Position numbers and translations under genes: made by a program. Below are positions 8,241 to 12,768 of a DNA stretch of 20,000 nt, piece after piece. Positions within the stretch are counted from its first letter, which is position 1, and each line of letters begins with the position of its first letter. This DNA comes from Folioceros fuciformis (Eukaryota). Location: NCBI GenBank assembly GCA_049999805.1, contig JBNGIO010006185.1, positions 149,775-169,774 of the forward strand. The letters are read 5' to 3'. A model generated the notes under the pieces. The model worked only from the letters and a program-made list of their open reading frames with translations. It made no database searches and was not told the origin of the DNA.

Positions 8241-8828
8241 ATGACACACGTATATGTGAGATTGATCTTGTTATTACTCCTTTGGTTCCATCCCTGTTGC
8301 ACTTATACTGTTGTGGACATTCAATGCGCACCAACACCAACTCAAGGAATACTTTACACACTTCGCAATGTTGCAACAAGTATAGTGATAAGTGGGTCAA
8401 GGCTTGAATCTGCATTGTTCTCACTTGAGCATGGGCGATGGGTGAAGACTTGGACTTCATTCAACTTTCAACCGGTTATGACATTTGTAGCAGGAAAGGG
8501 TCAAAGATTGTTTCCAAGTGACTTAGACATTGTGGTTCCACAGCTCATGGAATTAGAACTACAACTATGTCTTGACACGGCCCGACGGTTTCTAGATGAA
8601 CAGTGCCCCATGAATCGACATCAAGGACAAGTCACAGTGAGAATTGAAGAGCAAGATCAAAATGATGAAGTGCCCACAAGGTGCCCAGTTTCACAAGCCA
8701 ATGCAACTTGCACTTTGGGTTTCTCTCCATACGAATCATTTCTTTATAGATTTTTTGACTGTACTGTTGACAATTGTTATAATTACTTTCCGCATAGTAA
8801 TATTTTCATAGCTGGTGTTCGTTACTAG
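8241..8828 (+). CDS. Uncharacterised secreted Cys-containing protein, paralog 1 (195 aa)
   Basis: Intact intronless ORF with an N-terminal hydrophobic signal (RLILLLLLWF). By hand alignment it is 95/147 identical to paralog 2 over the ungapped core and shares 7 Cys. ACAACCATG start context; TATAAA at 8216. Confidence 0.85.
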   Translation: MTHVYVRLILLLLLWFHPCCTYTVVDIQCAPTPTQGILYTLRNVATSIVISGSRLESALFSLEHGRWVKTWTSFNFQPVMTFVAGKGQRLFPSDLDIVVPQLMELELQLCLDTARRFLDEQCPMNRHQGQVTVRIEEQDQNDEVPTRCPVSQANATCTLGFSPYESFLYRFFDCTVDNCYNYFPHSNIFIAGVRY

Positions 8829-9110
8829 TTGAACAATCGCTAAGGTAGCCACATGATGAAGGAGGAGAGAAGAAAGCAAAGTCTCTCTCTGTATTGCAAG
8901 GGAGCTCAAGAGGGTATTTATACCCTCTAGAAGAAAATAACTATCAAGGAAGTTGCGCAAAAAACTAAAAATTAACTTAAGCCAATCTAAATAAATGATA
9001 CTTAACTAGACACTAATCTTAGACTAAACACATTAGTCTAAACTAGGCTTTAATAACCCTACATTAGTACTTAAAGAAATAAGAAAGTTCAAATATTTCT
9101 TCTTCAAACT
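8829..9110 (-). mobile_element. Possible degraded solo-LTR-like remnant
   Basis: The minus strand carries TATAAATA inside a 9-bp inverted repeat (AGAGGGTATAAATACCCTCT, 8909-8928), followed by a CT-rich tract, as in copia-type LTRs. There is a second hairpin at 9019-9041. No clean TG...CA termini or target-site duplication found. Confidence 0.3.
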
Positions 9111-9838
9111 TTAAAAGATTTCTACTTCTCTTTCTCTTCAGAAATGGTTGTTTTTGTGCATAAGTTTTTAGCATGGAAAAACCTCTATGTACAAAAATGG
9201 TTTTAGAAAAAACAACACCTTTCTCCTTAGACATTGTTTAAGATTATAAACTAAGAAATGCCATGCATGAAAATTTACTTCATATAATTGCACACTTTGG
9301 CATTGTAGTTTAGGGTTTGACAATATCTACTGCTTGCATATCATAAAATTGATATTTTTATGGTAGAAAACTAATGTAAGGTGTATTAAATACACATATT
9401 TGTTTTATTGAAAGAAAAGATAAAAAGCCTCGTTTACCTTGAAAATAAAAATGAGAAGGAATTATCCAAAGAGGATCCATTGAAGGCCAAAAAAGAGACT
9501 AATCTTTGTGTTGTAAGTGCAAACTCTAGGTGATATATATTATTGAAAAAGAGATAAAATTCTATCTACCCAAAGATAAGGAGGAATAACTTGAAGAGAG
9601 TTGAAGGCCAAAAAGGGAATAAGCCCTCAAATACCATTCCTAAAATTACATATTGTTCCAAAAATGTCGTCATGAAAAATAACAAAAGGCCTATCTATAC
9701 AACTAGTGTTAAAGAGACTACTCGATCTACACTTGTTGTTCTAAAGACCGCATTGGCCTCACAGTTCTTATAGTCTTTTTCTTTTTTAACACTACTTGAT
9801 CATATATGTTTAAATTTATTTTTATATAACTACATTAA

Positions 9839-10429
9839 TCATACACGGACAGCTGGCACATAAATTGTGGTATGAGGGAAATAGTTGAAACAATCAGTAT
9901 TAACACAATCAAAAAGGGAATATAGTCGTGATTCATAAGGGGAAAATGCGAGAGTGCAAGTTGCATCTGCCTCTTTCACAGAACACCTTGTAGGTATGTT
10001 ATCATGTTGATCTTGCTCATCTATTGCTACTACAATATGTCCTTGGTATCGATTCATGGGGCATCGTGTGTCGAGAACTCGTTGAGCCTCTTGCAAACAT
10101 AGTTCTAGTTCTAGTTCGTATAGTTGTGGAACCACGATATCTAGGTCACGTGTGATTTTTCTTTGTCCCTTTCCTGCTACAAATGTTATGACTGGTTGGT
10201 ATGCAATAAAACTCCAAGCCTTCACCCACCTGCCATGTCCAAGCGAAAATAATGCGGATTGGAGACCAACCCCACTTATCACAAGTTGTGATGCCTGTTG
10301 TCGACGAGTTTCGAGTTTTATGTCTACATCTCCTACTGGTGCACAACCAATGTCTAGAATTGTGTATGCTAAACTTTGATAAAGAGGAAGCAGTAATAGC
10401 AACAGTAGTCTTGGATTTGCACCTGTCAT
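9839..10429 (-). CDS. Uncharacterised secreted Cys-containing protein, paralog 2 (196 aa from ATG 10429)
   Basis: Intact ORF. ATG 10429 has context ACAACTATGACA, matching paralog 1, and is followed by the signal peptide PRLLLLLLLPLYQSLA|YT. Shares HGRWVKxW, AGKGQR, VVPQL, CPMNR and NYFPH motifs. TATAAAA on the minus strand at ~10523-10529. Confidence 0.85.
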   Translation of the reverse strand: MTGANPRLLLLLLLPLYQSLAYTILDIGCAPVGDVDIKLETRRQQASQLVISGVGLQSALFSLGHGRWVKAWSFIAYQPVITFVAGKGQRKITRDLDIVVPQLYELELELCLQEAQRVLDTRCPMNRYQGHIVVAIDEQDQHDNIPTRCSVKEADATCTLAFSPYESRLYSLFDCVNTDCFNYFPHTTIYVPAVRV

Positions 10430-10534
10430 AGTTGTGAGGAAGAAACACGGGGAATAAAAAAGATTATTATCACAAGAAAATAAAATTACGAGGAGGTAGC
10501 ACCGATGAAAGACCATGGAGAGTTTTATACCAGT

Positions 10535-10935
10535 CAGAACATCTTGGGAAGCGTTGGATTCCTCCCAGCAAAAGATGTGTTAATTCCATGGAGCCTTGAC
10601 TCGGACAGTAGGAACCTTGAAAGGGGAGCCACAGCCCACCCTACGTACTGCAGCACGTTTACGTTGTAACATCTCTGCCTAATATACTTCAATGATGCCG
10701 GCATGCTTGAATGATCCTTGTTGTGGTTTCCTCACAGTCGGCGACGTGACGGAGGTTTGTGAAAGGTGCAGAGGATGGGATGGACAGGAGCTGCGGCTTA
10801 CTGTGAGCTGGCAGGATGATACGCATGGCGACCTAGCAGCATCCTGATGATACTGGAGGGGTGGAGGCAGTCTGGCCAGGAAACTAGTGCTGTTCTGTCA
10901 CGGTGTGTACACTGGGTTGCTGCTCAGGAAGGTCT
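10535..10935. repeat. Right arm of diverged inverted repeat (partner ~7215-7632)
   Basis: Colinear reverse-complement similarity to 7215-7632 in several blocks, including the 10-bp palindrome ATGCCGGCAT. Confidence 0.85.
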
Positions 10936-11203
10936 TGCCGCAAACAGTCTGATCGACGTGTCTGCAAAGTCTGGGAGCTTGGAGAATGCCTGCAAAGGGT
11001 TTTACAGATTGTCCACAAAAGATGTCGTGACGGGGATTGTCCTGAGTTCAGGACTTTCCGACCACTCGCGTGATGAAGAGGCTCTTCAGACCAGAAATAA
11101 TGCGGCACTTGTACGCCTGTTAATAGCATGGAGTAGCATTGGACCTCCAGATCAGGGGGAAATGGATTCACTGCCGGATCCAGGACTAGAAGGTGAAATG
11201 TTT
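10883..11203 (+). pseudogene. Decayed PPR fragment with internal deletions, homologous to ~4832-5345 of the PPR gene
   Basis: [67 protein letters not shown]..DQG matches AQEALA...[61 protein letters not shown]..DQG. It has an ~155-nt deletion and a frameshift. Confidence 0.85.
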
Positions 11204-12186
11204 CAGTCGCCATACGCCAATCGTGTCAGAACAACTTGTCGGGTTCTGAATCCTCTCTTCCTTTCCGCTGAAACATCCAGCTAGTCAGCAAAGAGCAGCA
11301 AATGCAGCGAACCTTTCATCGCCTATGGGTTTGAACAGTCTCGTTCACCCTTGAAACACCACGACTGTTTTCCTGGATGACGTGCCTCCGCTCAACCCCC
11401 GGCTTCTACCATCTCAGACTTGTCCTCCTGCAATCCCCCTCCGTGACATTCCTGTGAAAGACCGTGCTAGGCCTTGATAGATCCTCAAAACGTGAATGTC
11501 TTTCTTCCTTCTTCCTCCGCTTCCTGACAGCCCCAGCCTTCACCCCTGCCTCATCACCAACACCATCATCTTCAGAACCAGCCTTCATGACAGAATGAGC
11601 CACAGTTTCGTCTCGCCCCTCTCAATCCCAAGACAGCCTTTTTAAGTCCTCCTCCCCTTCATCCCCTGCAACGTCCTTCATACGGGGCCAAATCAAACAC
11701 ATGCCTTGGAAAGCTGACATGCCAACGCCTCATCTGACAGATAGCAGAAGGCAGCAATATCATTAAAGCCTGGCAAATCCACACCTATCGATATCAGAAA
11801 GCTGTGAACTTCCACAGGACGAGAGAAACCAGTCAGAAGAAAAGCTAGTAGCCATTGACATTCCTGTCATCACAACACGTCTCCAGAATTCAGGATAGCC
11901 CGTCAAGCCTTCTGAAGCATTTCGGTTATATATCTAGCTTGGAACAGAGGTTTTTCCTCAAATAAAAATAAAAATATTTTATAAAATAAGATAAATTTCT
12001 ACAATAATGATCATACTTTTAATATTTAATTGTACGTATCCATTTTAAAACTATTTTATAACATTAAAGATGTACATAAATCAACTAGTATGATGGAAAA
12101 TTACGTGTAAGATGCACAACTTCGAAGTGATATTAGATGATGTACTTGACTTTGTTTTCAGTGCTCGGAGAACATACATGTTCGCA

Positions 12187-12768
12187 TTACGAACTGCCAC
12201 CTGCTAAAAAAGTGCTTATGTGAGGAAAATAGTTGTAACAACCACTAATGGCGCAGTCAAAAAAGGCATACAGATGTGATTCGATGGGAAAGAAAGCAAG
12301 AGTACAGGTTGCCTCTGCCTCTGATACAGGACACCGAGAGGGTACACTTTCGTTTTGATCTTGCCCATCTATTCCTATTCTGACATAACCTTGACGTCGA
12401 TTCATTGGACACTCCGCATCTAGAAATTGTCGAGCTTGTTGCAGACAAAGTTGGAGTTCTGTCTCAAAGAGTTGTGGGACAACAACATCTACATCACGTC
12501 GAAACACTCTCTGACCCTTTCCTGCTGCAAATGTTATAACCCCTTGCTGCTGGAAAGAAGTCCAAGCCTTTACCCATCTACCATGTCCAAGTGTAAACAA
12601 GGTGGATGGAATACCATTCCCACTTACGACAATGTCTGTTGCTGCGCGTCGACGCAAACCCAATGTTGTGTCCATGTCCTCGGCTGCTGCACATCCCATA
12701 TCTAACACAGTGTAAGCGTAATTTCGAGAAAAGTAAGATATTAATAAACTGATGAATATTAAATGCAT
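12187..12768 (-). CDS. Uncharacterised secreted Cys-containing protein, paralog 3 (193 aa from ATG 12768)
   Basis: Intact ORF. The track start at 12789 is TTG; the first ATG is at 12768, giving signal MHLIFISLLISYFSRNYA|YT. Same 7 Cys and motifs as paralogs 1 and 2. Confidence 0.85.
   Translation of the reverse strand: MHLIFISLLISYFSRNYAYTVLDMGCAAAEDMDTTLGLRRRAATDIVVSGNGIPSTLFTLGHGRWVKAWTSFQQQGVITFAAGKGQRVFRRDVDVVVPQLFETELQLCLQQARQFLDAECPMNRRQGYVRIGIDGQDQNESVPSRCPVSEAEATCTLAFFPIESHLYAFFDCAISGCYNYFPHISTFLAGGSS

Follow-up and report, generated by a model that had tools for sequence, protein, structure and literature searches.

Plant immunity, symbiosis and reproduction work through secreted cysteine-rich (Cys-rich) proteins. 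Nearly all that are known belong to a few dozen named families, and those that have been amplified in tandem usually serve biotic interactions. The closest analogy to the locus described here is offered by the DUF26 CRRSPs (ginkbilobin-2, or Gnk2). According to the published account, these are extracellular proteins with a signal peptide and a Cys-rich domain stabilized by three disulfides, their genes have undergone lineage-specific tandem expansion, the core of the domain is defined by the pattern C-X8-C-X2-C, and some of the secreted members are mannose-binding lectins with antifungal activity (PMC6368629). Here we examine a trio of paralogous genes for Cys-rich proteins in a 20,000-nucleotide (nt) stretch of the genome of Folioceros fuciformis (assembly GCA_049999805.1, contig JBNGIO010006185.1, positions 149,775 to 169,774 of the forward strand), hereafter the window, in whose own coordinates all positions are given. 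Taken as a whole, the locus is probably best explained as a functional, rare and lineage-restricted family of secretory-pathway proteins that arose through old local duplications.

Three paralogous genes under purifying selection

Paralog 1 lies on the forward strand at 8241–8828 (195 amino acids, aa, plus stop), while paralogs 2 and 3 lie on the reverse strand at 9839–10429 (196 aa plus stop) and 12187–12768 (193 aa plus stop). The limits of paralogs 1 and 3 are those of the list of open reading frames (ORFs), and paralog 2 is counted from the ATG homologous to the starts of the other two. From its first ATG, at 10516, the ORF of paralog 2 would span 9839–10516 (reverse strand) and encode 225 aa; the second in-frame ATG, at 10429, gives the 196-aa form. 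We take the latter as the homologous start because its context, ACAACTATGACA, resembles the ACAACCATGACA of paralog 1 (consensus ACAAC[CT]ATGACA), and because a TATAAAA box lies 100 nt upstream of it, whereas by our reading the ATG at 10516 follows that box by only 6 nt. The coding parts of all three genes are uninterrupted, in agreement with an initial annotation of this DNA that had reported three intronless ORFs of 195, 196 and 193 aa. The word 'intronless' holds for the coding part only: there may be an intron in the 5′-untranslated region (5′-UTR), since an upstream element of paralog 3 (block B, described below) ends in the splice-donor-like sequence CAAG/GTATGT. When the window was searched with the three proteins by tblastn, exactly three copies were found, the next best matches having E values of 0.18 or worse.

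The alignment of the trio comprises 196 columns, with gaps in only four of them. The ungapped core that the initial annotation had put at ~147 aa does exist, and at 158 columns it is longer than was supposed; over these 158 columns the identity of paralogs 1 and 2 is 62.7%, and over the last 147 it is 64.6%, close to the ~65% given earlier. Overall, paralog 1 is 59% identical to paralog 2 and 57% identical to paralog 3. Seven Cys are invariant in the trio, as had been claimed (C29, C110, C122, C148, C157, C174 and C179 in paralog 1 numbering), two further Cys of paralog 1 fall inside its signal-like segment, and each of the seven motifs that had been named as common to the trio is found in three of three paralogs.

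At the base composition of the ORFs themselves a stop is expected in ~6% of codons, and the chance that a frame of 193–196 codons stays open is 5e-6 to 1e-5 per ORF. Within the mature part, the three pairs have proportions of non-synonymous differences (pN) of 0.24–0.26 and of synonymous differences (pS) of 0.58–0.63 by the Nei–Gojobori method (Fisher p from 3e-11 to 7e-14), corresponding to a ratio of non-synonymous to synonymous divergence (dN/dS) of 0.23–0.27. Synonymous divergence (dS) between the paralogs, at 1.1–1.4, is saturated, and therefore the duplications are old and this ratio is only approximate. Counted by codon position (first/second/third), the three pairs differ at 66/42/93, 59/47/93 and 59/52/84 sites, the third position being highest each time, and the part encoding the predicted signal peptide changes faster (ratio 0.35–1.27, on very few sites). 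The three paralogs are real genes under purifying selection, as the initial annotation had proposed: the pairwise dN/dS is far from the value near 1 that would speak against selection, and the contrast that it drew, of frames still open beside duplicated DNA that has decayed, is seen in the remnants of a duplicated gene and in the patchy upstream identity described below.

These results bear on the idea that the trio is not functional and consists of chance ORFs, young pseudogenes or transposon passengers. In its favour, the paralogs sit among decayed duplicated DNA, and their proteins, known from sequence only, do not occur in the public protein collections that were searched. Against it stand three open frames with p of ~1e-5 each, synonymous changes in marked excess, conservation along the whole length in five proteins of different sources (see next section) and 87 flanking ORFs scanned in which no transposon or other Pfam domain was detected (0 of 32 ORFs in 6600–13000 and 0 of 55 from 13000 onward). 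We regard this idea as extremely improbable and already close to refuted.

Relatives and the predicted protein

A HMMER scan with a profile of the three sequences, run without length restriction against 1.84 billion representatives of ~15 billion proteins, recovered four relatives of 191–239 aa (E from 2.4e-23 to 3.5e-12). A fifth, P0005, was added by a word-index search with one of the four, P0001, to which it is 72% identical; P0001 itself and P0005 were the members returned among 108 candidates. Similar searches with a 7-sequence profile and with paralog 2 returned, respectively, only P0003 and P0004 among 4128 candidates and nothing at E ≤ 0.01 among 185. The family as treated here thus has eight members, the trio of the window and P0001–P0005, and with only five relatives in ~15 billion proteins the earlier description of it as lineage-restricted stands. 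All five are nameless singletons from Logan, and their contigs measure 2122, 2185 and 6140 nt; the five represent at least three other sequence sources and show 26–31% identity. Alignment of the trio with P0001, P0005 and P0004 by hhalign gave a probability of 99.6% and an E value of 2.8e-24 over 188 columns, and BLASTP with paralog 2 gave 8e-24 against P0002 and 1e-14 against P0003, so the homology extends over the full length. In P0002 and P0003 the hydrophobic N-terminal segment follows an internal Met, and their called starts are therefore probably too far upstream.

In a maximum-likelihood tree the trio forms one clade (99/99) and P0001 with P0005 another (99/99), which indicates duplication within lineages; support is weak for the deeper branches, and those leading to P0002 and P0003 are long. 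For P0001, P0004 and P0005 the one contig reported is in each case 6140 nt long; if, as we presume, a single contig holds all three, another organism would have a second three-gene cluster that arose by its own, independent duplications.

The initial annotation had been unable to place the trio in any named family, and the same result was obtained for the whole family. None of the eight members matched Pfam at E up to 1 or NCBIfam, nothing fell below an E value of 0.087 among PDB sequence profiles (three), and we found no full-length match to a Pfam family or to a transposon protein. Five PHROGs families were each matched by one of the eight members (best E 0.0098), which we treat as noise. 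The ESM Atlas gave no usable match for the whole of paralog 2 or for mature paralog 1, the recognition value for paralog 2 being low (1420). In the literature the motif strings recur, to judge by the titles, only by chance, and among the papers listed on secreted Cys-rich lineage-specific bryophyte families none pointed, by its title and the opening of its abstract, to the family of the trio.

Several candidates were considered and rejected. A REF6-like C2H2 zinc finger (E 0.087–0.1) and a TBP1-like Myb/telobox domain (E 0.095–0.21) each matched over one short stretch; both are nuclear DNA-binding domains, at odds with a secretory signal, and we ascribe the matches to chance. Defensin, LTP, thaumatin, dirigent, germin/cupin, barwin, CAP, Kunitz, cystatin, cerato-platanin and KP4, eleven families for which Pfam models exist, had no Pfam match in any of the eight members.

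The N-termini of the trio consist of a short polar stretch, a hydrophobic 9-mer with a Kyte–Doolittle hydropathy (KD) of 2.9–3.2, and small residues before Tyr-Thr. The signal-like segment is 21 aa long in paralog 1 (8241–8303, forward strand; LILLLLLWF, KD 3.24; CCT before YT), 21 aa in paralog 2 (10367–10429, reverse strand; LLLLLLLPL, KD 3.2; SLA before YT) and 18 aa in paralog 3 (12715–12768, reverse strand; LIFISLLIS, KD 2.9; NYA before YT). Given the hydrophobic core and, by our reading, small residues at −1 and −3, cleavage would be expected before YT in all three. The signal-peptide-like N-terminus that had been noted in the trio is kept throughout the family, as judged by hydrophobicity: in eight of eight members a hydrophobic 9-mer (KD 2.8–3.8) precedes the first conserved Cys by 12–16 residues, and a scan of the mature parts detected no transmembrane-like window. 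The predicted mature proteins comprise 174 aa (19.9 kDa, isoelectric point, pI, 5.1), 175 aa (19.8 kDa, pI 5.5) and 175 aa (19.3 kDa, pI 5.3) in paralogs 1, 2 and 3 respectively, with seven Cys apiece, and N-glycosylation sequons are not conserved among them.

Seventeen columns are invariant in the eight-sequence alignment (C29, G53, G66, R67, W68, T82, G88, P101, C111, L112, A115, C123, C149, F162, L169, C175 and C180 in paralog 2 numbering), among them six Cys and a G-R-W triplet. The Cys follow the spacing C-x81-C-x11-C-x25-C-(x8-C)-x16-C-x4-C, and the six that are invariant would be expected to pair in three structural disulfides. P0004 has Ser in place of the seventh (C157 in paralog 1 and C158 in paralog 2), which is therefore facultative and dispensable for the fold, while P0005 has an extra Cys, aligned to position 87, that could pair with it. 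The initial annotation had suggested that the odd Cys might be catalytic; the paralogs do carry seven Cys, but the Ser of P0004 weakens the suggestion, and a role for this residue as a universal catalytic one appears unlikely. It may be a free thiol or take part in an inter-chain disulfide.

The same alignment bears on whether these proteins might be secreted enzymes, for example small hydrolases or nucleases, with an active site formed by His65, Arg67 and the C-terminal His186 (paralog 2 numbering) and the odd Cys as a possible nucleophile. The H-G-R-W and P-H motifs are kept in seven of the eight members and Arg67/Trp68 in all of them, and the size and disulfides resemble those of small secreted RNases. 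P0005, however, has Tyr in place of His65 and a displaced C-terminal His, the putative nucleophile is the residue lost from P0004, Pfam includes models of RNase T2, T1 and barnase among those that no member matched, and there was no enzyme among the PDB sequence profile matches. We therefore consider an enzyme unlikely.

The duplicated unit, its surroundings and its origin

The context of the trio is nuclear plant DNA. An intact pentatricopeptide repeat (PPR) gene lies at 3206–6637 on the forward strand (1143 codons, uninterrupted) and encodes, according to Pfam, an E motif and a DYW deaminase domain; PPR proteins with these features are organelle RNA-editing factors typical of land plants. 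The DYW domain usually ends in the tripeptide D-Y-W that gives it its name, and by our reading this protein ends in CSCGDGQSSVC instead. Relics of a PPR gene are found upstream of paralog 1 at 7047–7388 (reverse strand, antisense to the paralog; 30–44% identity to the intact gene by tblastn) and upstream of paralog 2 at 10901–11263 (forward strand, again antisense to the paralog; up to 52% over 100 aa), neither with any Pfam match left. As these relics accompany the paralogs, the duplicating unit must once have included the end of a PPR gene. Comparison of like-oriented units showed ~70–72% nt identity over 379–515 nt of coding sequence and nothing alignable downstream of it, and upstream there were only colinear patches of 30–128 nt; such short patches are all that can still be aligned upstream of the three paralogs.

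Two blocks stand out within these patches. The upstream regions that contain them span 7416–7632 on the forward strand for paralog 1 (block A 7416–7475, block B 7598–7632), 10535–10743 on the reverse strand for paralog 2 (block A 10687–10743, block B 10535–10569) and 12998–13200 on the reverse strand for paralog 3 (block A 13141–13200, block B 12998–13032). Identity among the copies is 67–78% in block A and 69–86% in block B, compared with 41–58% in the DNA between the blocks. A 30-nt core of block B is identical at 29 of 30 positions between paralogs 1 and 2, despite saturated synonymous sites in the genes themselves, and two matches to this core occurred in none of 200 shuffles. In paralog 2, 10 nt separate the end of block B from the TATAAAA, and the distance from the block to the ATG is 609, 106 and 230 nt in paralogs 1, 2 and 3 respectively; the longer gap in paralog 1 is due in part to a tandem array of 31- and 66-nt units at 7822–8082 (forward strand), between block B and the gene. 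We consider block B a candidate for a shared promoter element or 5′-UTR exon. Block A may, by our reading, be the edge of the PPR relic. The three functional genes would be accounted for by old local duplications, the duplicated unit being at least 1 kb long and made up of PPR relic, two upstream blocks and coding sequence.

The two conserved upstream blocks suggest shared, specific regulation, and together with a protein that is predicted to be secreted, Cys-rich, tandemly duplicated and lineage-restricted they would suit a signalling ligand for cell–cell communication, in reproduction or symbiont accommodation for instance, that is perceived by a receptor. Most Cys-rich peptide ligands of plants, however, are far smaller than the mature domain of ~175 aa, neither processing sites nor a receptor link can be pointed to, and the dN/dS of 0.25 does not come with the rapid divergence typical of recognition ligands. 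A role of this kind is, in our estimation, distinctly unlikely.

The composition of the genes agrees with the earlier remark that they are AT-richer than the flanking genes and have very AT-rich 3′ flanks. Their coding sequences have a GC content of 41.0–43.7%, and 26–33% at third codon positions (GC3), compared with 49.3% and 47.3% in the neighbouring PPR gene and a GC content of 49% in the whole window. Paralogs 1 and 2 are convergent and share 8829–9838 as their 3′ flanks, an AT-rich spacer of 30.3% GC, and the 300 nt after the stop of paralog 3 (11887–12186, reverse strand) have 28.7% GC. Poly(A)-signal-like hexamers follow each of the three stops, with AATAAA 162 nt past that of paralog 1 and 19 nt past that of paralog 2, and ATTAAA 157 and 164 nt past that of paralog 3.

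Composition is also one of the observations that could point to horizontal acquisition from a microbe, fungus or virus followed by amplification, an origin that had been raised in the initial annotation and that is compatible with any function. GC3 is low relative to the adjoining PPR gene, the coding sequence is uninterrupted, and the distribution of the family is patchy and extremely sparse. Positive evidence did not emerge, however. Across the genomes of 185,579 bacterial and archaeal species, two narrow pattern scans of limited sensitivity produced 45 and 33 matches to the patterns, none of which was confirmed as a relative; bacterial-type promoters and terminators (11 and 6 sites) showed no excess over the 12.8 and 5.7 expected from shuffles; and the PHROGs matches were confined to single members at E 0.0098 or worse. 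The predicted signal peptide, the TATA boxes and the poly(A)-like signals are eukaryotic in style. Because paralogs separated by a dS above 1 have all kept low GC3 and AT-rich flanks through their duplications, a local compositional bias would fit better than a recent foreign origin. Horizontal acquisition is thus, to us, very unlikely.

The remainder of the window contains several further features. A gluconokinase-like exon at 384–920 (reverse strand) matches gluconate kinases of the PDB (E 8e-19) and has no Pfam match, and the catalytic domain of a lipoyl/octanoyl transferase (PF21948) is spread over two ORFs at 1715–2573 (reverse strand; profile positions 2–85 and 91–199), presumably split by an intron or a frame change. 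A tRNA-Met (CAT) at 14146–14217 (forward strand) was detected with Rfam (57.7 bits) and also with ARAGORN. The region 14500–20000 is GC-rich (53.6% GC over 14001–20000) and has a strongly positive GC skew and many long forward-strand ORFs; it includes a near-perfect tandem repeat of 32 nt × 5 at 18982–19142, which repeats a peptide in frame, and a 43-nt × 3.1 repeat at 19869–20000 that runs off the end of the window.

Proposed function and comparison with known systems

In the explanation that we favour, each paralog would give rise to a pre-protein with a cleavable N-terminal signal peptide, which would enter the secretory pathway and form its disulfides. The mature domain of ~175 aa would be acidic (pI 5.1–5.5), have a mass of 19–20 kDa and be held by three conserved disulfides, with Gly-Arg-Trp in all members and a seventh, facultative Cys in most. 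By analogy with other families, we tentatively propose as one possibility that the site of action of the mature protein is extracellular (apoplast or cell wall) or possibly vacuolar, and that the protein, lectin- or inhibitor-like and not an enzyme, binds through an Arg-Trp surface in biotic interactions. The lineage-specific duplication of the trio, and of P0001 with P0005, is as seen in fast-birth secreted families. A bolder view, which we hold to be rather doubtful, is that these proteins are the founding members of a structurally new extracellular domain, in which three disulfides and a conserved Arg-Trp site go with a fold missed by current predictors. The domain would be present in few lineages and amplified independently to three-gene clusters in at least two of them, and its members would form a class of plant apoplastic proteins, for ligand binding or defence, that has not been seen before.

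A number of points weigh against this explanation in one or other of its parts. The trio is known here from its DNA. The signal peptide is predicted from hydrophobicity and the residues at −3 and −1, and the role in binding or defence is argued from analogy. An invariant Arg together with a His in seven of eight members would equally suit a catalytic site, and the C-terminal tails, which are hydrophobic and variable, could by our reading be vacuolar sorting signals. AlphaFold2 gave no confident fold, with a mean pLDDT (its per-residue confidence measure) of 31.9 from three sequences and 33.4 from seven; both models hint, at very low confidence, at strands around HGRWVK and TFVAGKG and at a long helix over VVPQL...CL..A....LD. 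A Foldseek comparison of the second model with the PDB returned no matches at E ≤ 0.001 and a best TM score of 0.16, a result that so poor a model makes uninformative. Finally, neither the trio nor the 225-aa form of paralog 2 occurs in the 15-billion-protein collection, by scans and exact look-up. Two start variants of the neighbouring PPR protein are likewise absent from it by exact look-up, and the protein set of the source genome was therefore probably not included, which means that the absence says little about annotation.

The wider interest of the family is that a conserved, selected protein of ~175 aa can escape Pfam, NCBIfam, PDB sequence profiles, a protein language-model atlas and AlphaFold2, and that public protein sets can lack such genes (though the whole genome may simply not be included). 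If expressed and secreted, these proteins would offer a new domain for structural work and a candidate lineage-specific player at the plant surface.

Among described systems, plant orphan families resemble the trio in having no named homologue, a narrow distribution, a local cluster and a composition unlike that of their neighbours. Typical young orphans differ from it, in that the trio is old (dS > 1) and constrained (dN/dS ~0.25) and has relatives in at least three other sequence sources. RNase T2 and the S-RNases are similar in size, in having a signal peptide and several disulfides, and in the H-G-x-W motif, which recalls their HGLWP active-site block. RNase T2 has two conserved active-site blocks with catalytic His, whereas in our alignment we see no second block of the KHGTC type, His65 is not invariant, and Pfam gives no match.

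With the classical defence proteins (defensin, LTP, thaumatin/PR-5, barwin/PR-4, CAP/PR-1 and snakin) the trio shares a secretory signal, a small globular protein predicted to be stabilized by disulfides, and an organization in gene clusters, but it matches none of their Pfam models, and the number and spacing of its Cys are different. The DUF26 proteins remain the best analogy for the mode of action, given their likeness in a signal-like N-terminus, three disulfides (predicted here from the conserved Cys) and tandem lineage-specific expansion. They differ in that their C-X8-C-X2-C core occurs in none of the eight members by regular-expression search, the corresponding stretch reading C-x8-C-x16-C-x4-C, with no Pfam match at E up to 1; in the size of the domain, ~175 aa here compared with ~100 in DUF26; and in distribution, DUF26 being found across land plants and the new family in eight known members. 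The trio is thus a new family inside the familiar class of secreted Cys-rich plant proteins.

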